DNA from: an uncultured Desulfobacterales bacterium
Lineage (GTDB): Bacteria; Desulfobacterota; Desulfobacteria; Desulfobacterales; B30-G6
Reading direction: 5' to 3'
Assembly (NCBI GenBank): GCA_964633115.1
Contig: CAZWEO010000002.1
Span: 7,935 to 71,934, forward strand
DNA: 64,000 nt
Part shown: piece after piece, positions 4,553-41,252 of the stretch
How positions within the stretch are numbered: the first letter of the stretch is position 1
Layout of the letters: every line of letters starts with the position of its first letter
Notes under the pieces: generated by a model
Told to the model about the DNA's origin: nothing
The model's database searches: none
What the model saw: only the letters and a program-made list of their open reading frames with translations
Position numbers and translations under genes: made by a program

Positions 4553-4650
4553 GGAAGTGCGCAGCTTACTGGTGAGGCTCCCGGACTTCAAATCCGGTGT
4601 GGGGCGCTAAAACCGTCCCGGGTGGGTTCGATTCCCATGCACTTCCGCCA
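4553..4650 (+). tRNA. selC: tRNA-Sec (anticodon UCA)
   Basis: GGAAGTGC...GCACTTCC forms an 8-bp acceptor stem followed by G-CCA. Anticodon loop is CTTCAAA within CCGGA/TCCGG. A long variable arm (GTGTGGGGCGCTAAAACCGTCCCGGG) and a T-arm GGTTCGATTCC are present. Total about 98 nt. Confidence 0.9.
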
Positions 4651-4975: not shown

Positions 4976-5010
4976 GTTGTCGCAACTCAATCGTGGAGCA
5001 ATTTTATTTT

Positions 5011-5520
5011 ATGTGGCGTGTTCCCTTAACAGTTCATATACTTTGGTTGTTAATGCGTTCGCTATGGATCCGCTTATCCAAGGCCAAATCCGGCATTAAT
5101 CTTCCAGCGGTTGCCACCCCGCCAACCACTTCACCACAAAATGCTGATGACGTGGTACACTGGTTTGACACCCTGGCCAGTGCTGCCATGTGGTTTAACC
5201 GACACCTTTGTTTTTATCGGAGCTTTGTTTTAGCAAGCATACTTCGTAAACGGGGTCTCCCCCTGGTCATAAATGTGGGCGGGCGTGGTTTGGGCTTAAA
5301 TGAGGTTAGAAAAGCGCATTGCTGGTTGACACTGGAAGATCAGCTGTTTCACGAGAAAGAAAATGCGCTTGAATTATATCCATTGGAAATGGGATATAAT
5401 CAAAACCAATCTATCCGCTATTGGATCGGTCCAGAATTGCAGGAGAGTGTCCTAAACGGTAGCCGTGTGACTAGAAACAGGTCGATCAAGCCCCTATTCC
5501 GACGTACTAAAGGTCTTTAA
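5011..5520 (+). CDS. lasso-peptide-B2-like transglutaminase-fold cysteine protease (orphan)
   Basis: RHLCFYRSFVLASILRKRGLPLVINVGG...KAHCWLTLEDQLF matches the Cys...His-x-Asp layout of McjB-C/Transglut_core3 proteins. The ORF track starts at GTG 4993; the ATG at 5011 is equally possible. Confidence 0.6.
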   Translation: MWRVPLTVHILWLLMRSLWIRLSKAKSGINLPAVATPPTTSPQNADDVVHWFDTLASAAMWFNRHLCFYRSFVLASILRKRGLPLVINVGGRGLGLNEVRKAHCWLTLEDQLFHEKENALELYPLEMGYNQNQSIRYWIGPELQESVLNGSRVTRNRSIKPLFRRTKGL

Positions 5521-7000
5521 ACTGGATTTCAACCCATTGTTTATTGCGGGTAGGTTCAGAGGAAGACGTGTCAGCATCCGAATTGATGAGCCACATTCCC
5601 ACGGCTTCAATACGTTGGGGCGCCATTCCTTTGCCAACTAAATACCCCTTTACAATATTGGCCGTGAATTCTGACATTTTTTTATTGTAACGGCGGCTGC
5701 CTTGACTCTCGGAATAGCCATTGATAGAAATTTGTAAGTCTGGATGTTTATTGAGCAAAACACTTAGATTATCGAGCGTTTCGACTCCCTCCTCACCGAT
5801 CTCACTATTGGCATCAAAATCAATTCGAATAACAACGTGTTTGTCAGGAATCTGAAGTTTATCCGAATCCATACTCGATTGAGAGGATGCGGTTTTAGGC
5901 GCTTCGGCGACAAAAGGTTCGGGTTGTGACGTTGTCACGGAAACAATTTCACTTGCATCAGCTGAATCAGGTTTAGAGAGCATTGATTCGTCTTGGGGCG
6001 TTATCGATGGACTTGATACGGTTTTACCCAAGGGCGTGTAATAATAAAGTGCGATGGCAATCCAGGCTATGATTAATACCGCCAGAATCACATAAAGCAA
6101 TTTCTCAACAAAAGCTCCTTTGTTAGGCCCAGCCGATGCTTGAATATTCTTATCTTGTTTGGGTGCAGTTTTTTTCTTTTTGGGACGGCTTTTTTGGTTT
6201 TGCAGTTTAAGCTCTCGGGCGCACTCTTTTAAGATGGCGGGTCCGATTTTTTTACTTTCTTGGGTAAAACCTGTCACCAGGGCACGGTCACAAATAACAT
6301 TGACGAGTCTTGGGTAACCATTTGAAAACCGAAAGATTTCACGGATGGCGGCCGCATTAAATATAGGTTTGCTGGCTCCGGCAATTTTAAGGCGATGGTG
6401 AACATATTGCCCGGTTTCTTTGGCTGTTAAAGGGTGCAAGTCATAGTTAACGGAAATACGTTGGCGCAAGGCGCTATTCTTGGGCTCAAGGATAATACTA
6501 TTAAATTCAATCTGACCCACAAAAAAAATATTGATCAGCTTGCTGGATTGTTTTTCGATATTGGAAAGTAGTCGGATTTCTTCTAATAATTCCTGACTGA
6601 GTCGCTGGGATTCATCAATGATCAAAAGGACTTTTTTATGCTCGCCATGGGCCTGGTTCAAGAAGCCCGTAAAGCGTTGGATGAAATCACCTTTACTGCT
6701 GAAAGACTCGCCGATTTGAAAGGAGTGGCCCAGGAAGGTGAAAAAATCAGTTTTATCAATTCCAGGATCGAGTAAGGTTGTGGCAATGATGTTCTCACCC
6801 AGTGTATTGACAAGGGCATTGATGAGGGTTGTCTTGCCGGTACCCACATCCCCGGCCAGCAGCAAAAATCCTTTGTTATCCATAAGACCGTATCGAAAAA
6901 CTGCCAAGGCCTCTTTGTGTTTTTCACCCAGCCAAAGGAATTTAGGATCCGTGCTGATTTGAAATGGTTTGCGCTCAAGTTGATAAAATGAAAGATACAT
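5507..7000 (-). CDS. ExeA/MshM-type AAA ATPase (XrtA-associated-ATPase-like) with a TM segment and a C-terminal OmpA-like domain
   Basis: The N-terminus MYLSFYQLERKPFQISTDPKFLWLGEKHKEAL...LLAGDVGTGKTT (Walker A), LLIIDESQ (Walker B) and YPRLVNVICDRAL are typical of ExeA/GspA. A TM segment (LLYVILAVLIIAWIAIALYYY) and an S/P-rich linker follow. The C-terminus INGYSESQGSRRYNKKMSEFTANIVKGYL...WVEIQF is OmpA-like. Confidence 0.8.
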   Translation of the reverse strand: MYLSFYQLERKPFQISTDPKFLWLGEKHKEALAVFRYGLMDNKGFLLLAGDVGTGKTTLINALVNTLGENIIATTLLDPGIDKTDFFTFLGHSFQIGESFSSKGDFIQRFTGFLNQAHGEHKKVLLIIDESQRLSQELLEEIRLLSNIEKQSSKLINIFFVGQIEFNSIILEPKNSALRQRISVNYDLHPLTAKETGQYVHHRLKIAGASKPIFNAAAIREIFRFSNGYPRLVNVICDRALVTGFTQESKKIGPAILKECARELKLQNQKSRPKKKKTAPKQDKNIQASAGPNKGAFVEKLLYVILAVLIIAWIAIALYYYTPLGKTVSSPSITPQDESMLSKPDSADASEIVSVTTSQPEPFVAEAPKTASSQSSMDSDKLQIPDKHVVIRIDFDANSEIGEEGVETLDNLSVLLNKHPDLQISINGYSESQGSRRYNKKMSEFTANIVKGYLVGKGMAPQRIEAVGMWLINSDADTSSSEPTRNKQWVEIQFKDL

Positions 7001-7927
7001 TTATAATTGATCCAGAAATTTAAAGTCTTTTGTTTGGGTATGTTTGGTGCCGATGGCAACAACTTCTATTTTTTGGTCCTGGGTAGTTCGATAGTACAAG
7101 CGGCCTTTATATGCAAATAGAACTTCAAAAACAGTTTCTCGGTTTTTTTTACCAAATACTTTACGTTTTATGGGCACAAGTTTGGGATCGTCATGCAATT
7201 GCAATATAATTTCCTCGGCCTTTAATTGAAGATCTGTGGTTAATGACCCAAATCCTGTGACAGCGCGATCATTCACGATCAAAGATTTATACAAGGTTCG
7301 GAATCGTTTATGATAAGTTTCGGTGGCTTTTTGTTTTTGCTTATTTAGTTCCAGTAATTTTTCTTGGTGCTGGGCTTCAGTTGACTGCAGCCGATCAATC
7401 TCTACCTGGATCTGGTTATATTCGCTTTCGGCTTTACGTGAACTCTTTTGGTAGGAAAACCAAAAGAACAAGATAGATAGGAATATATAGAAAGAAAGGA
7501 TAATAAAGGAAAGGATCTGATGCAGAACCACCGCGACTTTGACCGTAACCACAAAACCTTGGTTTAGGGCAGCGTAGTTTTCTTTGGCCACCTGCAGCGG
7601 CATTTTTTGTGGTTCCGAAGTGTCGGAATGCCCAAAAGCCGCCGGATAAATAATGGAATTTGCGGGTGTTCGAACAGTCACAACAGCCTTAACACCCCAA
7701 CCCAACACTTTTTTGGACCAAAGGTAGCGGTCGATGTTGTGAGTGATGGATTCACTGATCGTGATACTGCCGTTAAGAAGTGCTGTGGTGTCACCAATGT
7801 AAATTTCTTCAATTTCATTGGTATAACGGCCCTGGAGTTGTTGCTCGATTATCTGAATCGAGGCAATAAACAGCACCGGTGGCGACATGATGCACAGTAT
7901 CAACGTTTTTAGGGGAAAATACTTCAT
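7001..7927 (-). CDS. 2-TM membrane protein with coiled coil and C-terminal RelE/ParE-like domain
   Basis: Signal/TM segment (LILCIMSPPVLFIASIQII), a domain of about 120 aa, a second TM (ILSFIILSFYIFLSILFFWF), then a K/Q/E-rich coiled coil. The tail reads ...KAEEIILQLHDDPKLVPIKRKVFGKKNRETVFEVLFAYKGRLYYRTTQDQKIEVVAIGTKHTQTKD, matching the RelE/ParE pattern (L..nP....K.L...,..R.rvgdYRiiY.....i.v..IG.R). The stop abuts the start of the downstream gene. Confidence 0.6.
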   Translation of the reverse strand: MKYFPLKTLILCIMSPPVLFIASIQIIEQQLQGRYTNEIEEIYIGDTTALLNGSITISESITHNIDRYLWSKKVLGWGVKAVVTVRTPANSIIYPAAFGHSDTSEPQKMPLQVAKENYAALNQGFVVTVKVAVVLHQILSFIILSFYIFLSILFFWFSYQKSSRKAESEYNQIQVEIDRLQSTEAQHQEKLLELNKQKQKATETYHKRFRTLYKSLIVNDRAVTGFGSLTTDLQLKAEEIILQLHDDPKLVPIKRKVFGKKNRETVFEVLFAYKGRLYYRTTQDQKIEVVAIGTKHTQTKDFKFLDQL

Positions 7928-7933
7928 GCATGT

Positions 7934-10213
7934 TTAAAGTTGGGCTAGCGTTTCGCGTGCCTCTTGGACACCATCAAAGTTTTTGTCTAAACTAAGGGCT
8001 TTTTCGAGTTGTTTCTTCGCTTTGGGCTTATCCCCTTTCTGATAGTAAGCCATACCAAGATGGTAGTTAACGGTGGCATTGTCAGCTAACTTCTCAAGGC
8101 TGTCCTTGAATTCGCTAATGGCACTGTCATAGAGGCCTTTTTTATAATAAATCCAACCGAGAGTATCCATGACACTAGGCTCAGCGGGAAGTTGCTCTTT
8201 GGCTTTTTGGGCAAAGCCCAAGGCCTCGTCGATATTTTTATCTTGTGCCGCCAATAGATAGGCCAGATTATTAGCTGCCGGTGCAAAATCGGGGTTAATT
8301 TCTAAAGCAGCACGATAATGTTTTTCTGACATATCAAAACGCTTTTTCAAATCATAAATCGTACCCAGCATCATATTCGCGCTGGTTTGACGTGGATTTT
8401 TTTCCAGTATGGATTGATACTGCGCAATGGCCTTGTCCGGGTTATTGCCGGATAAATACATGCGCGCCAGGGCATAATAGGACCGCAGATATTCCGGGTT
8501 CGCCTCGAGGGATTTTTGAAATGCAGATTCAGCTGAGTCAGATTTTTTTTGGGCAAGATAAAGCCCCCCTTTGAGATTATATATCACGGCCTTTACAGCG
8601 GGGACGTCTGCGACTATTTGCAATTGCTGATCACATTTTTCTAAAGCTGTTGCGTATTCTTTTTTTTGGGAATGCAGCAGGATAACATTGGTAAAAACAT
8701 CCATCAGTTTTGGATTAATTTTAAGGGCCTTGTTAAAATTGGTTAGTGCCGCTTTATACTGTTTGGTTAGGCGTTGCAGCAAACCCAATCGAAAATAGCC
8801 GGTGGGATTATTAGAATCCAAGTTGATTAACTTATTGAAGTTTTCTTTGGCAGCATTGACATCTTTTTGTAGCAGTTTTGCATTACCAAGTATGAGTGTT
8901 GCTTGATAATTATTAGGGCTTAATTCAAGGATTTCAGTGCTTTCTTTTTCAGCAAGCTTCATATCGCGCTGGCGCAGATAAATTTCCGCCATGAGCAGCC
9001 TGGCTTTGATAAATCGCGGATTGGCGTCGACAGCTTTGCCGAGGGATGATTTGGCCATGTTGCTGTCACCTTTGCCAAGATAGGCCACCCCCAAGAGGTA
9101 ATGCGCGCGTGCGGCGCGTGGCTCTTCCTTGACCAGTTGATTCAGCGTATCGATAGCGCCATCAAACTGTCTGGTTTGTGCCAGCAGCTCTCCTTTTAAC
9201 AAACGGGTCGGAAAGTAGTTGGGGCGCTCGGCCAAAATTTCGGTAATGATGGCATCGGCCTTGCCCATTTCTTTTTGCTTGAGATGGAATCCGGCAATGG
9301 TGTTTTTGATTCGAATATCATCTGGTTGTTTCTCAAGTGCCTGCTTGTATAATTCCAATGCTTTTTGGGGATTCCCGGAAAATTCATAGAATCCAGCTGC
9401 TACGAGGTAGGATCGAATATTTTCGGGATCCTTATCTATAGCAACCGCATAAGATGCCTCAGCTTCTGGCATCATTTTACGTTGGGCAAAATAATTGCCT
9501 TCTTGAATCAGCAATTCAACATTGTCAGGATTCAAACGGATGGCTTGATTTAAAATGGCTTCAGCTTTTTTAAAGTCTTGTTTGCTTCTGTAGAAGTTGA
9601 AAAGAACGAGGCTTGGTTTTATATCCTTGGGATCAATGCGAGTTGCTTCGATGAGGTACTTTTCCGAAGCAGAAAGTTGCCCCTTGCGGGCGAGTATCCG
9701 CGAAAGTCCCATGTAGGCGCGTATTTGTTTGGCATCCAGTTGAATTATTCGGCGGAAGATTGACTCGGCTTCATCCAGCTTCTTATTAATGTCAAACAGA
9801 CCGGCCTTTAAAAATAGTGCATCAATGTGATCAGGGTTTTTACTAAGAAGTTTTTCAACGAGTTCCCGGGCTTGATCCGTTTGTTTGCCGAGCATGTAAA
9901 ACGTGGCCATTTTGAGCTGCGCATCGGTATTGCTGTCATCTAACTGCACAACCCGAGAATAGGATCTGAAGGCACCCTGGGAGTTGCCGAGCTTTAGATA
10001 GGTTTCCCCCAGTTTGGCATGGGCATCCACATATTCGGGATTGATTTGGACCGCATTTTTAAATTCGAGCTCAGCGCTTTTAAACTCCCCTTTATCGAAG
10101 TAAGCGCTGCCTTTTTCAAAGTGGGCCAATTTTTTCTCTTCGTCGGATGCACAACCCCATATAAACGTAAGTAATAGCATGACGCCACAAAGCATTTTCA
10201 AATAACGGTTCAT
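7934..10213 (-). CDS. TPR-repeat lipoprotein (PrsT-like / MshN-like)
   Basis: 759 aa. Lipobox LLLTFIWGC|A, then TPR repeats throughout (A..Y..LG..Y...G....A...F.kAl.l.P repeated more than 15 times). Confidence 0.85.
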   Translation of the reverse strand: MNRYLKMLCGVMLLLTFIWGCASDEEKKLAHFEKGSAYFDKGEFKSAELEFKNAVQINPEYVDAHAKLGETYLKLGNSQGAFRSYSRVVQLDDSNTDAQLKMATFYMLGKQTDQARELVEKLLSKNPDHIDALFLKAGLFDINKKLDEAESIFRRIIQLDAKQIRAYMGLSRILARKGQLSASEKYLIEATRIDPKDIKPSLVLFNFYRSKQDFKKAEAILNQAIRLNPDNVELLIQEGNYFAQRKMMPEAEASYAVAIDKDPENIRSYLVAAGFYEFSGNPQKALELYKQALEKQPDDIRIKNTIAGFHLKQKEMGKADAIITEILAERPNYFPTRLLKGELLAQTRQFDGAIDTLNQLVKEEPRAARAHYLLGVAYLGKGDSNMAKSSLGKAVDANPRFIKARLLMAEIYLRQRDMKLAEKESTEILELSPNNYQATLILGNAKLLQKDVNAAKENFNKLINLDSNNPTGYFRLGLLQRLTKQYKAALTNFNKALKINPKLMDVFTNVILLHSQKKEYATALEKCDQQLQIVADVPAVKAVIYNLKGGLYLAQKKSDSAESAFQKSLEANPEYLRSYYALARMYLSGNNPDKAIAQYQSILEKNPRQTSANMMLGTIYDLKKRFDMSEKHYRAALEINPDFAPAANNLAYLLAAQDKNIDEALGFAQKAKEQLPAEPSVMDTLGWIYYKKGLYDSAISEFKDSLEKLADNATVNYHLGMAYYQKGDKPKAKKQLEKALSLDKNFDGVQEARETLAQL

Positions 10214-10334
10214 TATTCGCCTCCAGAGAGTGAATGCCCCGCCTAAATATGCGATATATTCTGCGGGGATGCATGAAAATCATAATGCAATTTTATTATT
10301 TGAACAAAAAGTAATTATAGTCATTTTTAAAATT

Positions 10335-11498
10335 TTAGGGCAAGTGATTGTCGATTTGCTGATAGAATATCCGAATCTGCTCGACTACATATTCCAGTTG
10401 CTCTTCAGAAAGTTCAGGATAAATGGGAATTGCCAGCGAACATTGTGCTGCTTTTTCAGCGTGTTTGAATTCCCCGGACTGGTAGCCCAGATTTTCAAAA
10501 CAATCCTGTAGATGCAAAGGTACCGGATAGTAAACTTCGGTTCCGATGCCTGCTTTGCTTAAAAAAGCACGCAACTCGTCTCTGCGGTCGGGTACCATAA
10601 TTACAAACTGATTATAGATGTGTCGGCCTGGTTTTTCGAGTGGTAAAATGATGCGGTCTGTTAATCCCTTTTGGTTAAAGAGGATGCGATATTTTTCAGC
10701 ATTTATTTGCCGGCCGCGAGTCCAGTCATCCAAATGTTTCAATTTTACAGATACAATGGCAGCTTGTAATGCATCCAAACGAAAATTGCCACCGATTATT
10801 TTGTGATAATATTTAGGCTTAGCACCATGACCTCTTAGAATTCGCAGGTCTGCGTCGTATTGTTCCGAATTTGTAGTAACAATACCACCGTCTCCAAAGG
10901 CACCCAGGTTTTTAGATGGAAAAAACGAAAAACATCCAAAATCTCCCATGGAACCTGCACGCAGGTCTTGGTATTCTGTACCGATGGCTTGGGCAGCGTC
11001 CTCCACCACAATCAAGCCATGTTTTTTAGCAAATTGCACGATTGGATCCATATCAGCACTCTGTCCGTATAGATGGACCGGTATAATCGCCTTAACCCGT
11101 TCTTGTTCGGCGCTGCTGAGTTTTTGCATGGTCGAATCCAGCAAATTCGGATCCATATTAAACGTAAGCGGATCAATATCAACAAAGACAGGCTTGGCAC
11201 CCAATCGTGAAATGGCACCGGCCGTAGCGAAAAACGTATACGGCGTTGTCAATACGATATCATCGCTGGAAATGTCGGCTGCCATAAGGGCGATAATGAG
11301 TGCATCTGAGCCAGATGACACACCGACAGCATAATTGGCTTTGCAATATTGGGCTATTTCTTGTTCCAAATCTGTAACTGTCTGACCAAGAATAAAATAC
11401 TGGGACTCATATACGGCTTCGGTAGCTGCTAAAATTTCATCTTTAATGGACTGGTACTGAACCTTAAGATCAAGTAGGGGTACTTTCATGGTATTCAA
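10335..11498 (-). CDS. DegT/DnrJ/EryC1/StrS-family PLP sugar aminotransferase
   Basis: 387 aa. FILGQTV..LEQEIA, GVSSGSDAL and SFFPSKNLGAFGDGG (PLP-Lys box) motifs. Confidence 0.9.
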   Translation of the reverse strand: MNTMKVPLLDLKVQYQSIKDEILAATEAVYESQYFILGQTVTDLEQEIAQYCKANYAVGVSSGSDALIIALMAADISSDDIVLTTPYTFFATAGAISRLGAKPVFVDIDPLTFNMDPNLLDSTMQKLSSAEQERVKAIIPVHLYGQSADMDPIVQFAKKHGLIVVEDAAQAIGTEYQDLRAGSMGDFGCFSFFPSKNLGAFGDGGIVTTNSEQYDADLRILRGHGAKPKYYHKIIGGNFRLDALQAAIVSVKLKHLDDWTRGRQINAEKYRILFNQKGLTDRIILPLEKPGRHIYNQFVIMVPDRRDELRAFLSKAGIGTEVYYPVPLHLQDCFENLGYQSGEFKHAEKAAQCSLAIPIYPELSEEQLEYVVEQIRIFYQQIDNHLP

Positions 11499-12886
11499 CT
11501 CTCCATTTGATGGATAATAATGAGTAATGCGTCTTGATCGCTGTCATTTTTTATCAGGTATGCCGATGGCGTGTCCATGGATACCGAAAAGCCTGTGCCC
11601 AGTATCTGGTCTACCTGATTGTAGCCAAGCCGGCAGTCACCGGTCAATATATTAATATATACACGACCCTTAGGAGCCGGATCGCATGTGTAGGTTTTAC
11701 CGGGTTTTATTGTAACCCGGATGACAGTTTCATTTGCTGATTTCTCCAGAAATTTGACACTACCCCAGGCGTTTTTTTCTGAAAGGTGTGCCCGATATTC
11801 TGGACGGTTTTGCTGTTTTAAGCGCGTGACAATTTCTTTGACATCACGACTGGTTTCCAGATTAGAAACAAATACCGCATCAGGTGTTTCCACCAGAACG
11901 ATGTCGGAAAGATCGTTGGATGTAACCAATCGGCTTTTTGAAAACAACAAACTATTGTGTGTATTCTGGCAAAGCACATCCCCCAACAAAGCATTGCCAT
12001 TCTCATCCTTGGGCAGGTATTCATGCAAAGACTTCCAGGAACCGACATCACTCCATCCAAATTCGGATGGAAGTACGACCCCATTTAGTGTCTTTTCCAT
12101 GATGGCTACATCGAAGGCCAAATTTTGCAGACACGCATAGGCGTCAATGGAAATGGGCTCTCCCATGTTAACGATAGCTTCCATTTGGGTGAACATTTTA
12201 GGTTGGTGAACCTGAAATTCATTTATAATTGCGGAACCACTAAATGCAAACATACCGCTATTCCAAAAAAAATTTCCAGCGTCGATGTAGCTTTGGGCGG
12301 TTTTAAGGTCAGGTTTTTCAACAAAACGCTTGATTTTTAAACCACCATCGGTAACCGGGATACTCCCTTCGATATAGCCATAACCGGTTTCGGGATATTC
12401 TGGCTTGATGCCAAACGTAACCAGGTTGCCTTTGATTGCCAGTTGGGTTGCCTGTGCAATCCGGTGGTGAAACTGGGTAATATCTGCAATGACATGATCA
12501 GCGGGAAATATAAAAAATATTGCATCACTAATTTTGTTATCAGCGAGAATTTTAAGAACAGCTAACAGGATGGCTGGCGCAGTGTTACGGCCAACAGGCT
12601 CACCGATTATTTTATCCTGGGGTGTGATACCCAGGGCGGCCAAATGATCAGCGGAATCCAGACGATGGTCTTGGCCACACACTATCAGCACGTTATCTGT
12701 ATTCAAGGCTGGCGATAGTCGCTGGATGGTTTCCTGCAGAAGCGACAAGCGGCTGCCAAACGCAGCCAGTTGTTTGGGCGCCTGGTTCCGTGAAACCGGC
12801 CATAGACGGGTACCGGATCCACCGGCCAGCAGAACTGGAAACACCGCTAAACCATTGCTTAAAGGTTTAGGCTCATCATTTACCAT
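11495..12886 (-). CDS. manC: mannose-1-phosphate guanylyltransferase / mannose-6-phosphate isomerase
   Basis: VLLAGGSGTRLWPVSR nucleotidyltransferase motif, EKP..., and a C-terminal cupin. The ATG at 12886 (MVNDEPK) is preferred; the ORF-track start at 12988 would run 110 nt into dnaE. Confidence 0.9.
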   Translation of the reverse strand: MVNDEPKPLSNGLAVFPVLLAGGSGTRLWPVSRNQAPKQLAAFGSRLSLLQETIQRLSPALNTDNVLIVCGQDHRLDSADHLAALGITPQDKIIGEPVGRNTAPAILLAVLKILADNKISDAIFFIFPADHVIADITQFHHRIAQATQLAIKGNLVTFGIKPEYPETGYGYIEGSIPVTDGGLKIKRFVEKPDLKTAQSYIDAGNFFWNSGMFAFSGSAIINEFQVHQPKMFTQMEAIVNMGEPISIDAYACLQNLAFDVAIMEKTLNGVVLPSEFGWSDVGSWKSLHEYLPKDENGNALLGDVLCQNTHNSLLFSKSRLVTSNDLSDIVLVETPDAVFVSNLETSRDVKEIVTRLKQQNRPEYRAHLSEKNAWGSVKFLEKSANETVIRVTIKPGKTYTCDPAPKGRVYINILTGDCRLGYNQVDQILGTGFSVSMDTPSAYLIKNDSDQDALLIIIHQMES

Positions 12887-15800
12887 AATAGGTCCTCTTT
12901 GGTTGCTGCAACGATCCAGCTTTGCTGCAAACACTCTCATAGGCCTGGTAACCCAGACAAGCGTTGACTGCCTTACGTAAATCCCCACTGGGATGCAATT
13001 GAAAAGGTTCTGGTAGGGCGATGATTGCTTCAGCCATCTCGGGTGCTTTTACGTGCAGAAAAACCTCACAAGCGCCTCGGTGGTTTTTGACTACCTGTTG
13101 AAGGGATTCAAGTTGATCGCGGCCTGTGTTGTTTGTTTCCAGATTGATGTGGATGCTGACCGTCCAGATTTCTTCTGCTTTTTGGATGGGTACAATATGG
13201 TTGGCCAACAATTTGACAGTGTTTTCCTCTTTCTGGATTTGGCCATCCACCAGAATGGCATTGTCAGCGATCAACAGATGATGGATTTCGGCATATAGGG
13301 ATGAAAAAACTACCATCTCAAAGGAGCCGTTTAAATCCTCCACGGATACAAAAGCCATCAGATCACCTCTTTTGGTGGTGATGGTTTTGATATTTCGAAT
13401 CATACCGGCCAAACGCACGCCTGTGTTGTCGTCCAGTTCTTTCAGGGTCAAGGTCTCGGCTGTGGCAAACTTGTCGATAATCGTATTGTACCGATTAAGT
13501 GGGTGACCAGTGATATAAAATCCCAGCGCCTCCTTTTCAAATGCCAAAAGCTGTCTTTCCTCCCACTCTTCGATGTCAGGCAGTGGTGGCAAATTGATAC
13601 TGGGGGCATCGGCAGCCGATCCAAACAGACATATCTGTGGATCTGCTTTTTCCCGCTGTACGCGCTGACCATATTCGAGGATTTCGTCCAGCCCCCCTGT
13701 GAGCTGCGATCGTTTCAAATCCAGGGAGTCAAAAGCACCGCTTTTAATCAGGCTTTCAAGCACGCGCCGATTGACTCGCCGCAAATCGACCCGTTCGCAG
13801 AAATCAAAAATGGAAGCAAACGGTTGTTCCTCACGATATTCGAGGATAGATTCAATAGCACCTTCACCGACATTTTTTACGGCGGCTAGACCAAAGCGAA
13901 TGCTATCTCCGATGACCACGAATTCTTTGCTACTCTCGTTAATATCCGGTGGCAGAACTGGTATGTTGTGCCCCTTGCACTCGGATATGTACTTAACCAC
14001 GCCATCGGATGAGTTCATTTCACTGGTTAGCAAAGCCGCCATGAACTCTACTGGAAAGTGTGCTTTTAAAAAGGCGGTTTGGTAGGCTATCAAAGCATAG
14101 GCGACGCTGTGTGACTTATTAAATCCATAACCGCCAAACTTGGAAATGAGACCAAATATTTCCCCGGCCTTGTCGGCAGGAATTCCGTTCTCAACAGCCC
14201 CATCCACAAATCGTTTGTGGTGTTTTGCCATGATTTCTGGTATCTTTTTACCCATGGCTTTCCGGAGATCGTCAGCCTCAGACATTTTATAATTGGCCAG
14301 AACACCGGCGATTTTCATGACCTGTTCCTGGTAGACAATAACGCCGTAAGTCTCCTTGAGGATAGATTCCAATTCAGGAACCAGGTATCGAACTTCCTTG
14401 CGTCCATGCTTGCGTTGGACAAAATCGGTCACCATACCGCTATCCAATGGGCCCGGTCGGTATAATGCTACCAGGGCGATGACGTCATCGAAAGTTTCCG
14501 GGCGCAGACGGATCAGCAAATCTTTCATCCCCGAGCTTTCCAATTGAAACACACCGGTAGTGTCTCCCGAACAAAGCAGCGCATAGGTGGCGGGGTCATC
14601 CATTTTCAGGTTGTCGATGTCAAGGGATGTTTTCCCTTGGCGAGCGATCATATCGAGTGCGTTGGCGATGACCGTTAGATTGCGAAGACCAAGAAAATCA
14701 AACTTGACGAGGCCAATTTTTTCGACGATTTTCATGTCAAATTGGGTTACGACTTCATCCTTTTTGCCCTGGAATAGAGGTAGGTATTCTACCAAGGGTC
14801 TGTCGGAGATGACCACACCGGCAGCGTGAGTGGATGCATGCCTCGGCAAACCCTCCAGTACACGCGAGACTTGAATCAACTCGGCAACATCTGGGTTTTG
14901 TTTGGCAAGTTCCCGTATTTTTGGTTCCTGCTCCAGGGCATCGTCCAAGCTGATATTCAATACATCTGGAACCATTTTGGCGATGCGATCCACTTCTTGC
15001 AGGGGGATATCCAAGGCCCGACCTACATCCCGGATAACAGCCCGGGTTTTGAGTTTTCCAAATGTGATGATTTGGGCGACACGCTCACCGCCGCCATATT
15101 TTTCGACCACATATTTAAAAACCTGTTCGCGACCATTGATGCAAAAATCCACATCGATGTCGGGCATACTTTTCCGAGCTGGATTTAAAAAGCGTTCAAA
15201 GATGAGGCCGTATTGAATCGGATCGAGGCCGGTTATACCTAAAGAATAGGCCACCAGGCTACCTGCCGCGGAGCCCCTACCCGGCCCCACGGGGATGCCA
15301 TGGGATTTGGCATACTGGATAAAATCGGCGACGATTAAGAAATAGCCCGGAAATCCCATTTTCTTGATCAGACCGATTTCATGGTCGAGTCGCTGCTCGT
15401 ATAAAGATACGTCGATATCCGGATTCTTTTCAATAAGACGCTTGATGATAGCATGGAAGCCATCCCGGGTTTTTTGTTCAAACAGCTCTGATTCGGTGAT
15501 CTTTTGGGGCGTCTCAAATTTGGGGAAGTGGTAGGTCTTGAAATCAAAATCTACCTGACAGCGGCCTGCAATTTGAACTGTGTTGGCCAAAGCATCTGGA
15601 TGGTCCTTGAAATAGGCAGCCATTTCCGGTTTGGATTTGTAATACAGCTGATTGGTGCCAAATTTGAGTCGGTTGGACATTTTAACGGTTTTGCCGGTCT
15701 GGATGCACAGCAGCACATCATGGGCCTTCACATCATCTCTATCCAGGTAATGACAATCATTGGAAGCTACCAAAGGAATTGAGAGGCGTTGACTCATGTC

Positions 15801-16561: not shown

Positions 16562-16855
16562 TTATAAGCTTGTTTGTCTGTAATCTTTAGCAAAATCTAA
16601 CCAAACTTCAGTTTCACCCGCTTCACCGGCACAATCAATTAATTTGCTGATAAATGCTTTTTTGTAGCGCCTCCTTTTCCAGGCTTCGGCGATATTGGCA
16701 GGCACACTACGTGAAGATCGACGTATCTGATCCACAAGGCTGTATTTTTCTTCAGCCGGAAATTCTTTTGTGATTTTATGTATTTCCAATGCTAATTGAT
16801 AAGCAACTTGATATACATTAAGATCCTTATATCCTTTGTAATTTCTCTTGTTCAT
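16562..16855 (-). CDS. four-helix-bundle protein (23S rRNA intervening-sequence protein family)
   Basis: 97 aa: YKDLNVYQVAYQLALEIHKITKEFPAEEKYSLVDQIRRSSRSVPANIAEAWKRRRYKKAFISKL..AGEAGETEVWLDFA. This is the canonical pattern of the TIGR02436-type family. Confidence 0.85.
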   Translation of the reverse strand: MNKRNYKGYKDLNVYQVAYQLALEIHKITKEFPAEEKYSLVDQIRRSSRSVPANIAEAWKRRRYKKAFISKLIDCAGEAGETEVWLDFAKDYRQTSL

Positions 16856-27133: not shown

Positions 27134-28315
27134 ATGAAACGTGTTAAAAGCGGTTTACAGCTCTTTATCGAACAACGCCCGGCATGGATAGCTGATCAGC
27201 GCATCGGCCTACTCTGCAATCCGGCTTCGATTGATGCTAGTTTTCGCCATGCCCGTCACCTCATTCATGCGCGCTTTCCAGATCAGCTAAAGGCTCTGTT
27301 TTTTCCTCAGCATGGGCTTTTTTCCGAAAAGCAAGACAATATGATCGAATCCGAAGATTGCCTGGATCCGCTGCTGGGCATACCGGCTTTCAGCTTATAC
27401 GGCCAGACACGTAAACCAGATAAGCGTATGTTCGACAGCATCGATGTGCTCGTGGTCGACCTACAGGACGTGGGCACGCGCGTTTACACCTTTACCTCAA
27501 CGCTGTCTTATTGCATGCAGGCTGCTAAGCGATTTAATAAAAAGGTACATGTGTTAGATCGTCCCAATCCCATCGGCGGAGTTAAAATTGAAGGCAATTG
27601 TCTGGCATTGGATTGCCGCTCTTTTGTGGGCCGCTATCCCATACCCATGCGGCACGGATTGACCCTGGCTGAGTTCGCTATGATGATCAACGATCAATTT
27701 GGTATAGGCTGTGATCTAACCTGTATTCCCATGTATGGATGGAAACGCCGCATGAACTTTGTAGATACGGGACTTCCCTGGGTTGCGCCCTCCCCGAACC
27801 TACCGACACCATCTTCGGCTGCTGTATATCCGGGACAGGTTGTCTGGGAAGGTACCCAGGTTTCTGAAGGCCGCGGAACCACCTCGCCGTTTGAATATTT
27901 TGGCGCACCTTATATGCTACCTGAAAAAATTCTAGCTTATTTAAATCGACAGACACTACCGGGTGTGACTCTCAGAGAAGTTGCCTTCGAACCGACGGCC
28001 AATAAATGGAAGGGTTCCCTTTGCAGGGGATTTCATTTACATATTCTGGATCCCTTGGCATATCAGCCCTATGAAATTTCATTGCGGTTGCTACAAGCAA
28101 TTATTGCTGTGCATGCAGATTCGTTTGCCTGGAAGCAGCCACCATATGAATATGAATTTGAGCGGCGTCCCATTGATTTGATCATCGGTGACACCGATAT
28201 CTGTAGACGTCTTGAAAATTTAGAAGATCCTGCAACCATATTCAAATCCTGGCAACCATATTTGAATCAATATCGTGCCATGTGCAAACAATACTATCTA
28301 TACGGCGATGAATGA
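27134..28315 (+). CDS. namZ: DUF1343 / exo-beta-N-acetylmuramidase NamZ family
   Basis: 393 aa. GLLCNPASI, VLVVDLQDVGTRVYTF and LDRPNPIGG motifs are typical of DUF1343. Confidence 0.8.
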   Translation: MKRVKSGLQLFIEQRPAWIADQRIGLLCNPASIDASFRHARHLIHARFPDQLKALFFPQHGLFSEKQDNMIESEDCLDPLLGIPAFSLYGQTRKPDKRMFDSIDVLVVDLQDVGTRVYTFTSTLSYCMQAAKRFNKKVHVLDRPNPIGGVKIEGNCLALDCRSFVGRYPIPMRHGLTLAEFAMMINDQFGIGCDLTCIPMYGWKRRMNFVDTGLPWVAPSPNLPTPSSAAVYPGQVVWEGTQVSEGRGTTSPFEYFGAPYMLPEKILAYLNRQTLPGVTLREVAFEPTANKWKGSLCRGFHLHILDPLAYQPYEISLRLLQAIIAVHADSFAWKQPPYEYEFERRPIDLIIGDTDICRRLENLEDPATIFKSWQPYLNQYRAMCKQYYLYGDE

Positions 28316-32545: not shown

Positions 32546-34261
32546 ATGAAAGCGCTCGTTCTCGCGGCAGGTTTTGGGCAACGATTAGCACCTTATACCT
32601 ACCTTACCCCCAAACCACTATTTCATATTGCTAATCGTCCATTACTGGATATTGTGCTTCGAAAATTATCAGCAGCGGGTATTTCTGCCATAACCGTTAA
32701 CACCCATCATCTGCACCATAAAATTGAAACTTATTTAACAACTCAATCCTACGATATTCCAGTTAAAACCCGTCATGAACCCGAAATATTGGGAACCGGC
32801 GGCGCCATTAAAAATCTGGTTGATTTTTGGGATGACGAGCCATTTATGGTGGTAAACAGTGATATCCTTTTTAATACCGACTTACCTGCTTTTATACGCT
32901 TTCACCAGGAATGTAATGCCCTGGCCACCCTGCTGTTATGCGACAACGCCAATTTCAATCAGGTATGGGTAGACCAGCAACATCTGATTCTCGGATTTGG
33001 CCTCGATCATGAGCCAAGCTCCGGCGATGCCAAGACATGGACCTTTACCGGGATTCAGATCATTGATCCACAACTTTTAGATTTCATTCCGGAAAAGGCC
33101 TTCTACTCAGTTATCGATGCCTACCGCAAGGCATTGACCCAAAATAGAATTATTCAGGCTTTTATCCCCAAATTAATTACATGGACTGACATTGGTTCGC
33201 CGCAACGTTTTAGGCAGGCAGCTGTCCGCAGCATGGTTGGAGATGTTTTTGCCGATGAAGACCCAGACTACAACAAGGCCCTAAAAACCATAAAGCTTGC
33301 TGGTGATGGATCCGATCGCTGTTGGTATCGGTTTAAAAAAGCCAATACCAGTATTATCATGACCGATCATGGTATACGATCTGCATCCGGTGTTCAGGAA
33401 GTCGATGCCTTTATTAAAATTGGCCAGCATCTACTTTCGTGCGGTGTAAAGGTCCCTATGATTATCTCGACCGATCCCTTTAGCGGTTTGGTTTTGTTAC
33501 AGGACCTGGGCGACCAACATCTTCAAGATGTGGTCCAAAAGCAGGGCTTGGTGTCAGATATCGTCGGGAGCCTTTACAAATCCTTTATCATTCAATTGGT
33601 ACATATGGGTACGGTTTGCCATCCGGGTTTTGATAGCAATTGGACCTACCAAAGCGCCACCTATGATCAATCGCTGGTGCTTGAAAATGAATGCCGCTAT
33701 TTTGTGACGGCCTTTTTGAATGACTATCTTAAAATGTCCACCCAATTTGAAGACCTGCTTGACGAGTTTCAGTTGTTGGCTCAAAAAGCCGCAACCTGCC
33801 AATACCAAGGCTTTATGCATCGAGACATGCAATCGCGCAATATAATGGTGTATCAGGATCAATGCTTCATTATCGATTTTCAGGGTGCCCGCATCGGCCC
33901 CTTGGCATATGATTTAGCCTCGCTTCTGATTGACCCGTATGTGGCCTTGCCGTCTGAAATGATCAGCGAATTTTACGATTCATACGTGCAACAGCTGTCT
34001 AAATCGATGGGAATTGATAGGGCCAGCTTTCGGAATGATTATGAAATCTGCAGGCTGACCAGGAACCTGCAAATATTGGGAGCATTCGGTCATCTAGCTC
34101 GCAATCAAGGCAAGACACAGTTTGAAGCCTATATACCGAGGGCGCTGGCGACATTGAGTCAAAATCTGGATGTCTGCTACTTAGGTGATCGGCCACCAGG
34201 CCTGTGTAAAGTTGTTCGCAAAGCCCAGGCGCGGCTTAAAGAATTGAGCCATAAGCAATAG
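32546..34261 (+). CDS. fusion of a sugar-1-phosphate nucleotidyltransferase (MurU-like) and an anomeric sugar kinase (AmgK-like)
   Basis: N-terminal LVLAAGFGQRLAPYTYLTPKPL...GTGGAI. The C-terminal APH-fold kinase carries HRDMQSRNIMV...IIDFQGARIGPLAYDLASLL. Confidence 0.7.
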   Translation: MKALVLAAGFGQRLAPYTYLTPKPLFHIANRPLLDIVLRKLSAAGISAITVNTHHLHHKIETYLTTQSYDIPVKTRHEPEILGTGGAIKNLVDFWDDEPFMVVNSDILFNTDLPAFIRFHQECNALATLLLCDNANFNQVWVDQQHLILGFGLDHEPSSGDAKTWTFTGIQIIDPQLLDFIPEKAFYSVIDAYRKALTQNRIIQAFIPKLITWTDIGSPQRFRQAAVRSMVGDVFADEDPDYNKALKTIKLAGDGSDRCWYRFKKANTSIIMTDHGIRSASGVQEVDAFIKIGQHLLSCGVKVPMIISTDPFSGLVLLQDLGDQHLQDVVQKQGLVSDIVGSLYKSFIIQLVHMGTVCHPGFDSNWTYQSATYDQSLVLENECRYFVTAFLNDYLKMSTQFEDLLDEFQLLAQKAATCQYQGFMHRDMQSRNIMVYQDQCFIIDFQGARIGPLAYDLASLLIDPYVALPSEMISEFYDSYVQQLSKSMGIDRASFRNDYEICRLTRNLQILGAFGHLARNQGKTQFEAYIPRALATLSQNLDVCYLGDRPPGLCKVVRKAQARLKELSHKQ

Positions 34262-40082: not shown

Positions 40083-41252
40083 TTATCGTCGCGGTAACGG
40101 CATTTGCGGTTCTCCTAGTAAAAACTTACCCGCAGCAATGCGTTTCTTGAGTAACTGAGCAAGCTCACGCGCTCGCACCATGCTGGAAAGTGGAACCGCT
40201 GTGATGCGTTTACCATTTATTTGAATACTGCCGCTTTTGAGCTCTGCATAGCTGACTTTGCCATAGGATTTGGATTTACCTTGGGGATAATCTTTTCCAT
40301 AATCGATTACGTGCGTAAATAATTCCGCATCTGAAATCGATGTGTAGCGCGCCATTTCTTCATTTAAAATGGGGATGGGTATGCCAAGCCCCACGCTGAG
40401 CGAGCATCCATATCCTTGAATGCTGACGCCCACTAGCCATTTGGATTTCATCTTTTTTAAGTCTCCCATAACAAACAAAGTCCCGGCTGGCGATTCTGGC
40501 ACACCCTTGGATGTTCGCTTGGCACGAGGCTTATGTTGGGTACCATGCCAAGTAATAAAGCCTTCGGTGCCGCCCAGAAATATGCGGGTTCCTAGTCCAA
40601 TTGTAAGGTAATAGGGATCATTGAAAAGCGGACTCAGCTGGCCTGCTGAGCAATAATTGGCATTGCCCATGCGCGGTTTCAGGGCACCCATATAGGTGTA
40701 AACCGTTTTTTTGGTGGTATTGACGGCACAATTGTAATTTTGATAGGCGTTACGCGGGTTGCACAGGAGCGCATTTGGTATAGTTTTCAAGTTTATCTTT
40801 TTTTCAACCCGTTTATTGGGATAGCAGTCTGTACCATAGGCAATGGCTTTTAAATGGATGCTTTTCCCAGCCACCAGATCCTGGATGACGTGCCCGCCAC
40901 CATAGCGAAATTCACCCGGGTAAACCTTATTCAATGGATCGTCTTCGCATGGTTCCGTGGCACCGATATAGCAATCGACGGCTGCAACACCGCCATAGGC
41001 AGGCACATCGTTGAGCCAAACCTTAGAAGCCTTGATACCCGGTGCTGAGTGACCAAAATTAATAAAAGCCCCGGATGAACACATGGGAGCAAACGTGCCC
41101 GTGGTGACAACATCCACCTGACGTGCAGCCTCCACAGGACCGGCATCCTTGACCACATCGATCATTTCTTCCGCCGTAACCACAACAGCTTCGCCAGCTT
41201 TAATTTTTGCATTGATCTGCTGAAAGGTTTTATTTACTTGAAATGATTTCAT
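40083..41252 (-). CDS. DUF39 / COG1900 homocysteine biosynthesis protein
   Basis: 389 aa. INAKIKAGEAVVVTAEE...VDVVTTGTFAPMCSSGAFINFGH is typical of the family. Confidence 0.75.
   Translation of the reverse strand: MKSFQVNKTFQQINAKIKAGEAVVVTAEEMIDVVKDAGPVEAARQVDVVTTGTFAPMCSSGAFINFGHSAPGIKASKVWLNDVPAYGGVAAVDCYIGATEPCEDDPLNKVYPGEFRYGGGHVIQDLVAGKSIHLKAIAYGTDCYPNKRVEKKINLKTIPNALLCNPRNAYQNYNCAVNTTKKTVYTYMGALKPRMGNANYCSAGQLSPLFNDPYYLTIGLGTRIFLGGTEGFITWHGTQHKPRAKRTSKGVPESPAGTLFVMGDLKKMKSKWLVGVSIQGYGCSLSVGLGIPIPILNEEMARYTSISDAELFTHVIDYGKDYPQGKSKSYGKVSYAELKSGSIQINGKRITAVPLSSMVRARELAQLLKKRIAAGKFLLGEPQMPLPRR

Follow-up and report, generated by a model that had tools for sequence, protein, structure and literature searches.

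A 64,000-nucleotide stretch from an uncultured Desulfobacterales bacterium (contig CAZWEO010000002.1; this whole stretch is called the window here) carries on its minus strand three packed genes for a PrsT-type TPR outer-membrane lipoprotein, an inner-membrane protein of an undescribed family (the middle protein), and an ExeA/GspA-like ATPase with an OmpA-like periplasmic domain. What related loci conserve is the pair formed by the TPR gene and the middle gene; the ATPase gene is a recurrent third member. On balance, and with moderate confidence, we read the module as a dispersed, lineage-specific accessory of the PEP-CTERM/exosortase system for extracellular polysaccharide (EPS) and surface proteins of the Desulfobacterales; it is probably an extension of the known PEP-CTERM accessory set rather than a free-standing new system. 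The close packing described in the initial annotation is confirmed in the sequence. The three open reading frames (ORFs) occupy 7934..10213 (759 aa), 7001..7927 (308 aa), and 5507..7000 (497 aa); the TPR gene ends with TAA at 7936–7934, 6 nt before the ATG of the middle gene at 7927, and the TAA of the middle gene at 7003–7001 abuts the ATG of the ATPase gene at 7000 with zero spacer. A GGAGG ribosome-binding site precedes the TPR gene and none is obvious before the middle gene and the ATPase gene, which would fit coupled translation. All three are real genes, each with many homologues.

Gene neighborhoods were compared across 80 related loci and the window (L numbers designate individual loci), with upstream counts taken on the 64 loci and downstream counts on the 63 loci that had enough sequence. 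In 53 of 64 loci the gene immediately upstream of the middle gene, in the same orientation, is the TPR gene, whereas the ATPase-OmpA gene lies directly downstream in 23 of 63 and is absent from that position in the remaining 40, and it also occurs without the pair. These counts identify the pair, and not the triad that had been put forward, as the conserved unit. In eight loci, from Desulfotignum (L037, L040, L043, L044, L046, L052, L055, and L066, about 7000–14400), a gene for an AMIN+DUF1302 outer-membrane protein replaces the TPR gene, with a DUF1329/LolA-like gene before it, and a convergent gene for a patatin-cNMP-binding protein and a gene for a TIGR03790-family protein come after the middle gene. 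Housekeeping genes (rpsF-rpsR-rplI-dnaB) or a convergent neighbor lie downstream of the middle gene in other loci. Common neighbors of the pair include sigma-54 activators, histidine kinases, PilZ proteins, galE, and 3′-phosphoadenosine 5′-phosphosulfate (PAPS) synthase, and sugar-nucleotide genes adjoin the module both here (manC and degT) and in Desulfosarcina (galE and PAPS synthase).

Besides the adjoining sugar-nucleotide genes, several observations favor the assignment to the PEP-CTERM system, the first of which concerns the TPR protein itself. PrsT was defined by phylogenetic profiling as the TPR lipoprotein of the PEP-CTERM/exosortase system, with PEP-CTERM proteins, exosortase, and PrsK/PrsR as its genome-level partners (Haft 2006, PMC1569441); the only role for which it has been tested is flocculation in Aquincola, where it is required (PMC9850573). 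The window protein (7934..10213, minus strand) resembles PrsT in being a large TPR lipoprotein that is matched by many TPR Pfam models and scores 404.6 bits on TIGR02917 (PrsT), above the curated equivalog cut-off of 312.2. Its hydrophobic N terminus, encoded by 10213–10151, reads as a signal peptide with a lipobox ending at Cys21 (...FIWG-C21-ASDEEKK), in agreement with its first description as a lipoprotein. A signal peptide and a cysteine followed by SSDEEKK recur in the 5′-complete members of a cluster of 54 TPR proteins, a few N-terminally truncated members of which lack the signal-peptide region. The lipoprotein probably sits at the inner face of the outer membrane.

Related loci also favor the assignment, as they place the pair, or an ATPase-OmpA homologue, near PEP-CTERM proteins, XrtA-type polysaccharide genes, or XrtD. 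A Pfam scan of the 118 nearest neighbors of the middle gene found the PEP-CTERM motif in five, and a search for tails recovered 14 ORFs with canonical VPEP-TM-RKK tails in seven loci, among them Desulfosarcina variabilis, at 0.3–7 kb from the middle gene. In L012, L025, and L054 the pair is followed by an XrtA chain-length determinant, which in L012 lies above the TIGR03007 cut-off (301.8 bits versus 278.85); genes for a tyrosine-kinase-like protein, a Wza-like protein, and a TIGR03016-like outer-membrane protein then follow in L012 and L025, and degT lies downstream in L012 and L054. The chain-length, kinase, Wza-like, and TIGR03016-like families all belong to the gene set of the canonical XrtA locus on Desulfovibrio vulgaris pDV1. 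On the ATPase side, a homologue with 43% identity has genes for an XrtD exosortase and a PEP-CTERM protein 5.7 kb away (L089 1–13752), the XrtD gene coding for an exosortase-EpsI fusion that scores 529 bits against a cut-off of 400. The same cluster holds a ParE/Phd pair, a PAPS synthase, a 74-aa ORF, and two MshEN-T2SSE ATPases, one with a GAF domain and one with a cNMP-binding domain, and L090 repeats the order PAPS synthase, ATPase, small ORF, MshE-like gene. The initial proposal of a system apart from PEP-CTERM loci is therefore probably wrong.

Several observations weigh against this reading. No exosortase, PEP-CTERM protein, or polysaccharide export gene occurs in the 64-kb window or in the next 10 kb to its left, the absence of exosortase and PEP-CTERM substrates from the window having been remarked at the outset, and for this genome the PEP-CTERM link rests on other genomes. 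About 50 of the 64 loci show no PEP-CTERM or EPS gene within the 7–10 kb examined, and the neighboring kinases and sigma-54 regulators fall below the PrsK and PrsR cut-offs (92 versus 300 and 420 versus 502.6). The TIGR02917 match consists of four partial stretches on a model of 899 positions, and repeats inflate such a score; the TPR protein also passes the MamA and PilW cut-offs (PilW, 206 versus 154) and aligns with PrsT of D. vulgaris pDV1 at the level of repeats only, with 21–24% identity. Taken alone, the model match makes PrsT a weak call. Orthology with the pDV1 protein was tried by BLASTP and rejected, the alignments being shifted and confined to repeats. The window protein differs further from PrsT in length (759 aa versus ~890 aa) and in that it is here always followed by the middle gene, of which pDV1 and other canonical loci have no copy, and PrsK and PrsR were not identified near the pair. 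The ATPase scores 255.8 bits on TIGR03015, below the cut-off of 324.5, and a control, the Aeromonas ExeA with GspB as its neighbor, reaches 270.9. Since a genuine ExeA scores higher on the model, the TIGR03015 match was rejected as an assignment of the ATPase to the XrtA system; of the models proposed for this protein, AAA_22 and PF00691 held up and TIGR03015 did not.

The ATPase gene (5507..7000, minus strand) encodes a 497-aa protein in which an AAA domain and an OmpA-like domain are joined, as the initial annotation had it. The cytoplasmic AAA_22 domain (residues 1–265; 6206..7000; 82 bits) has intact Walker A (GDVGTGKTT) and Walker B (LLIIDES) motifs, conserved in the alignment, and is followed by a basic stretch, by a single transmembrane segment (residues ~299–321; 6038..6106; Kyte-Doolittle 2.82) with SRPKKKKTAPKQDK just before it, and by the OmpA-like domain (residues ~385–497; 5510..5848), in which PF00691 matches residues 399–470 with 40.3 bits against a gathering threshold of 27.2. 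The domain match thus stands, but the canonical peptidoglycan-binding residues are missing from the window's clade. The conserved Asp and Arg of OmpA/Pal-type domains contact the peptide stem of peptidoglycan. In an alignment of 23 homologues, these two residues are replaced in the window's clade only: its eight genomes have GYSES, FTAN, and KQWVEIQ, whereas in the remaining 15 homologues these positions read GYTD (or nearly so), FRA, and NRRVEIE (RRVEIE/RKVxIE). The replacements suggest that the OmpA-like domain of this clade has lost canonical peptidoglycan binding.

Two known ATPases invite comparison. ExeA, an ATPase with a peptidoglycan-binding domain, acts with the inner-membrane partner ExeB (PMC4098917). 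The window ATPase shares with the ExeA/GspA type the cytoplasmic AAA_22 domain, the one transmembrane segment, a periplasmic domain of the wall-binding type, and a gene apparently coupled in translation to that of an inner-membrane partner; its AAA domain is 40% identical to that of Aeromonas ExeA. However, it has an OmpA-like domain, which in this clade is without the binding Asp and Arg, in place of PG_binding_1 (PF01471), the gene order is reversed, no secretin occurs in the window, and the middle protein is unrelated to GspB, with two transmembrane segments and a large cytoplasmic part. Its AAA domain is 34% identical to that of the XrtA-associated ATPase of D. vulgaris pDV1 (TIGR03015; DVU_RS16080), whose family is embedded in exosortase-type polysaccharide loci, but an OmpA domain is missing from the pDV1 protein, the window protein scores below the family cut-off, and its gene lies outside any locus of that kind. 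An Aeromonas caviae record with exeA-exeB, NZ_AP026896.1 (L082 5929–8327), is 4.9 Mb long and, although filed in a plasmid collection as "plasmid pKAM479_3", is evidently a chromosome; it is almost unannotated in that collection.

The frequent absence of the ATPase gene raises the alternative that the triad is two units, the TPR and middle genes on the one hand and, on the other, an independent ATPase-OmpA gene that is often adjacent in polysaccharide-related neighborhoods. The 40 of 63 loci without a downstream ATPase gene favor it, as do ATPase-OmpA homologues found without the pair, after PAPS synthase or phosphoglucomutase genes, and the AAA_22+OmpA architecture, which is common among the best 120 ATPase homologues (usually named "general secretion pathway protein A" in the source). 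Where the ATPase gene is present, however, the order is invariably TPR gene, middle gene, ATPase gene, and the adjacency spans at least seven deep clades, between which the middle proteins share at most 45% identity. The TAA|ATG abutment, which leaves no spacer for a ribosome-binding site, is conserved in 7–8 genomes of the window's clade. Loci L010, L013, L014, L016, L018, and L020 share the order dnaE-manC-(degT)-TPR-middle-ATPase, as does L023 except for a manC match; the synteny of this clade runs on past the ATPase gene to pepT-like-larC-pgpA-lepB, with guaB, dnaE, and manC on the other side. We consider a division into two units unlikely, although it withstands the evidence better than the alternatives that follow.

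A little less probable still is that the module is an assembly factor of the ExeAB/MshMN type for a secretin or pilus (type II secretion system, MSHA pilus, or type IV pilus), the ATPase and its partner serving as wall chaperones and the TPR protein as a pilotin of the PilW/PilF/Tgl type. In its favor are the AAA domain, which is closest to that of Aeromonas ExeA, the score of the TPR protein above the PilW cut-off, and its further matches to Tgl and GltE, and MshEN-T2SSE ATPases follow the more distant ATPase-OmpA homologues. On the same contig beyond position 1, moreover, lies an apparent pilin locus (L087 10753–20678) with pyrC, a sigma-54 response regulator, a 146-aa type IV pilin (N_methyl; PilA-like), two TPR proteins (688 and 614 aa), a VKOR-DsbA fusion, and a PMT_2 glycosyltransferase; the cluster of sigma-54 regulator, pilin, and TPR genes begins ~6 kb past the ATPase gene and is the only exception to the housekeeping content of the window and of the 10 kb past its left end. 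The pilin gene itself, at ~7.7 kb, falls just beyond the window edge and is parted from the triad by one convergent gene, one tRNA gene, and six housekeeping genes. The 64 kb of the window hold no secretin and no pilin, which bears out the first inspection, and no secretin or pilus-assembly gene was found there or in the 10 kb beyond. The 25 Pfam families that turn up most often in the 118 nearest neighbors include no secretin or pilus family, the middle protein has no match to GspB (NF037978), and most loci have the pair without the ATPase gene. Like the MSHA operon with its mshM and mshN genes, the window places an ExeA-like ATPase gene near a TPR protein gene, but it lacks MSHA pilins, the secretin MshL, and MshE, and a third gene lies between the two.

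That third gene, the middle gene (7001..7927, minus strand), defines a new family worth naming, with a distribution almost entirely restricted to the Desulfobacterales. It had been described as matching none of the usual partners, and it is indeed not a routine annotated component: searches with the whole protein (E ≤ 0.1) returned no Pfam or NCBIfam family and only coiled-coil and transmembrane noise, its two isolated domains gave likewise no Pfam family at E ≤ 1, and PADLOC has no match for the gene. A possible counterpart in the canonical XrtA locus of D. vulgaris pDV1, the hypothetical gene that precedes prsT there, was ruled out, the two being unrelated (hhalign probability 0.1%). The family is narrow. 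It has 672 homologues, almost all of 365–385 aa, and when 1.84 billion representatives were searched exhaustively with an HMMER profile for distant relatives outside the Desulfobacterales, only 344 clusters emerged, with the same full-length architecture in essentially all of the 150 among the matches listed. The gene is carried by 113 species-level genomes, and the 80 loci kept are nearly all labeled Desulfobacterales or unclassified Deltaproteobacteria/Thermodesulfobacteriota, with Desulfosarcina, Desulfotignum, Desulfonema, and Desulforapulum among them. Public gene callers place the start at Met14 (295 aa); we prefer the 308-aa form because the N terminus MKYFP.K.LILC is conserved across homologues. 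The window protein lacks 74 coiled-coil residues that are present in all 64 other members of a 65-sequence alignment. The gap is in frame, at residues ~195/196 between ...LLELN and KQKQK, and is flanked in the nearest homologue by RQK...RQK repeats; since the same allele occurs on 23 public contigs, the deletion is not an assembly error.

An AlphaFold2 model of the middle protein built on this alignment (predicted local distance difference test, pLDDT, 84.6) has a first transmembrane helix, a small α/β domain, a second transmembrane helix continuous with a long helix, and finally a β-α-α-β-β-β-α domain. From the model we infer a layout in which TM1 (residues 8–28; 7844..7906; Kyte-Doolittle window mean 2.28; model helix 6–42) is oriented N-in, with Lys2 and Lys7 N-terminal of it, and is followed by a predicted periplasmic α/β domain (residues 29–133; 7529..7843; helices 48–51, 57–71, 73–77, and 110–123, strands 79–86, 92–94, and 126–133). 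TM2 (residues ~134–160; 7448..7528; Kyte-Doolittle 2.48) is followed by QKSSRK, which fits the positive-inside rule, and would lead into a cytoplasmic coiled-coil stalk (residues 161–212; 7292..7447; a single model helix at 138–212) and the C-terminal domain (residues 213–308; 7004..7291). The distribution of charges would thus place both termini in the cytoplasm. With the one transmembrane segment of the ATPase, the two hydrophobic segments give the three that had been counted for the module, and the proposed spread of its domains over cytoplasm, inner membrane, periplasm, and outer membrane agrees with the predicted topology. The periplasmic domain has no confident structural match in the PDB (Foldseek) and no Pfam match.

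The C-terminal domain is predicted to have a RelE/YoeB-like fold. With the full model, the top 25 Foldseek matches are all RelE, YoeB, YafQ, HigB, or ParE toxins; with the last 104 residues modeled on their own (pLDDT 88.1; predicted TM-score, pTM, 0.81), the top 21 all belong to the same toxins, the best being E. coli RelE (4fxe_E, E = 5.4e-4). Template modeling scores are 0.54–0.60 on the query and 0.66–0.71 on the target, with a root-mean-square deviation of 2.7–3.8 Å, and the β-α-α-β-β-β-α fold is matched over the whole toxin, with a basic loop before strand 2. The RNase members RelE, YoeB, and YafQ fit better than ParE (0.54–0.60 versus 0.41–0.44 on the query). The initial annotation's RelE/ParE-like tail therefore stands at the level of fold and not at that of sequence: PF05016 and the other RelE/ParE/YoeB/HigB models do not match the isolated domain (Pfam, E ≤ 1), a profile of 23 C-terminal domains found no toxin among all PDB sequences, and hhalign against E. 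coli RelE and YoeB gave a probability below 1%. A sequence-level RelE homology of the domain, being unsupported by all three, was set aside. Together with the N-terminal tail carrying TM1, the domain is nonetheless the most conserved part of the protein, with 47 of 96 columns at least 90% conserved and an invariant basic loop (KRKVFGKK), R276, R280, and K295. Literature searches on TIGR03015, on exosortases in Desulfobacter-type bacteria, and on membrane-fused RelE domains returned nothing useful.

This fold raises the question of whether the middle protein is chiefly a signaling effector, that is, a transmembrane sensor whose RelE-fold domain, a toxin domain domesticated and without an antitoxin, would respond to an envelope signal by binding ribosomes or cleaving mRNA. 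The layout is that of a sensor (two transmembrane segments, a periplasmic domain, and a cytoplasmic coiled coil), the closer fit to the RNase toxins and the invariant residues point in the same direction, and sigma-54 regulators, kinases, and PilZ proteins are frequent nearby. Among the Foldseek matches is Cami1 (8phj), a ribosome-bound sensor-RelE fusion of the CARF-RelE kind. However, the domain has no sequence similarity to any RelE, ParE, YoeB, or HigB model, and a by-eye mapping, made as an inference without superposition, keeps only two of the five catalytic positions of E. coli RelE as basic residues; the catalytic set is not evidently kept. Unlike a RelE toxin, the domain has no antitoxin, has TPR and ATPase genes as neighbors, and forms the C terminus of a membrane protein of 308–382 aa, joined to its anchor by a coiled coil of ~50–125 residues; the gene is single-copy, chromosomal, and set in housekeeping synteny. 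A role of this kind is doubtful, and a more specific version, in which the middle protein would be a membrane-tethered, envelope-signal-regulated, domesticated and antitoxin-free RelE mRNA interferase or ribosome binder, borne on the coiled-coil stalk and controlled by PrsT by way of the periplasmic domain, coupling the EPS/PEP-CTERM surface state directly to translation, is more doubtful again. A toxin-antitoxin or anti-phage defense island, in which the RelE-like protein would be the toxin and the AAA ATPase and TPR protein its companions, and to which the fold and the commonness of AAA and TPR proteins in defense systems might point, is very improbable and was rejected, given that PADLOC has no significant match, that the synteny with housekeeping genes (guaB, dnaE, manC ... 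pepT-like, larC, pgpA, lepB) is conserved in several genomes, that antitoxin and mobile-element genes are absent, and that the architecture is membrane-bound and periplasmic.

For the accessory of the PEP-CTERM/exosortase system that we favor, the physical contacts, the direction of signaling, and the role of the RelE-fold domain are suggested by the architecture and by the ExeA-ExeB precedent (PMC4098917). At the core would stand the PrsT-type TPR lipoprotein and the lineage-specific inner-membrane protein, whose periplasmic domain may contact the lipoprotein or, in Desulfotignum, the AMIN-DUF1302 protein. A long dimeric coiled coil would carry the RelE-fold domain into the cytoplasm, and the pair could in this way connect the state of the outer membrane or periplasm with a partner in the cytoplasm. 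An ExeA/GspA-like ATPase appears, in about one-third of lineages and in this one, to be translationally coupled to the pair and, by analogy with ExeA-ExeB, might supply ATP-dependent assembly or remodeling at the level of the cell wall.

The module had also been placed directly downstream of the sugar-nucleotide genes. The degT/pseC-like aminotransferase gene (10335–11498) and manC (11495–12988), both identified by NCBIfam, are co-oriented with the triad and syntenic with it in the window's clade, but an intergenic region of 121 nt (10214..10334, minus strand) separates degT from the TPR gene. A sigma-70-like match, TTGCCC-18-TATAAT, has its first hexamer starting at 10343 in the 3′ end of degT and its second ending at 10314; it is a likeness to the consensus and not evidence of function. 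With the gap and this match between the genes, a single transcript with manC and degT is not demonstrated. No sigma-54 −24/−12 motif was found by eye in the 121 nt. At the other end, a 175-aa ORF with a Transglut_core3 match (34.8 bits; 4993–5520, plus strand) faces the ATPase gene convergently and shares 14 nt with the 3′ end of that gene; the ORF is also called as a gene on identical public contigs, and the triad unit ends there. The gap between this ORF and the pepT-like gene holds a tRNA-Sec gene (4553–4650, plus strand; anticodon TCA), which implies selenoprotein synthesis in this organism.

Elsewhere in the window, a 97-aa ORF between guaB and dnaE (16562–16855, minus strand) matches PF05635 (23S_rRNA_IVP), with a weak bAvd match, on an identical public contig; proteins of this type form four-helix bundles and are found alongside diversity-generating retroelements. 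Peptidoglycan recycling is represented, at the two loci 27134–28315 and 32546–34261 (both plus strand), by a NamZ exo-muramidase gene and by a gene for a fused MurU-like uridylyltransferase/AmgK-like kinase, both near rnhA and plsB. A 389-aa protein (40083–41252, minus strand) has a sub-threshold match to TIGR03287, "methanogenesis marker 16 metalloprotein" (128.6 versus 364 bits); such a match is unusual for a bacterial housekeeping region, here beside an M23 peptidase gene and thpR.

Since 2006, comparative genomics has recognized PrsT and the ExeA-like ATPases found in exosortase loci, without a mechanism for either. A family that is an obligate neighbor of PrsT in one bacterial order and has a clear inside-outside architecture offers a handle on the partner of PrsT across the inner membrane. 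If the RelE-fold domain only docks proteins, the middle protein would be an ordinary new family at the level of a domain of unknown function, useful for the annotation of sulfate-reducer genomes. If instead it acts on the ribosome or on mRNA, this would be a rare instance of a housekeeping envelope pathway that has taken over a toxin fold.

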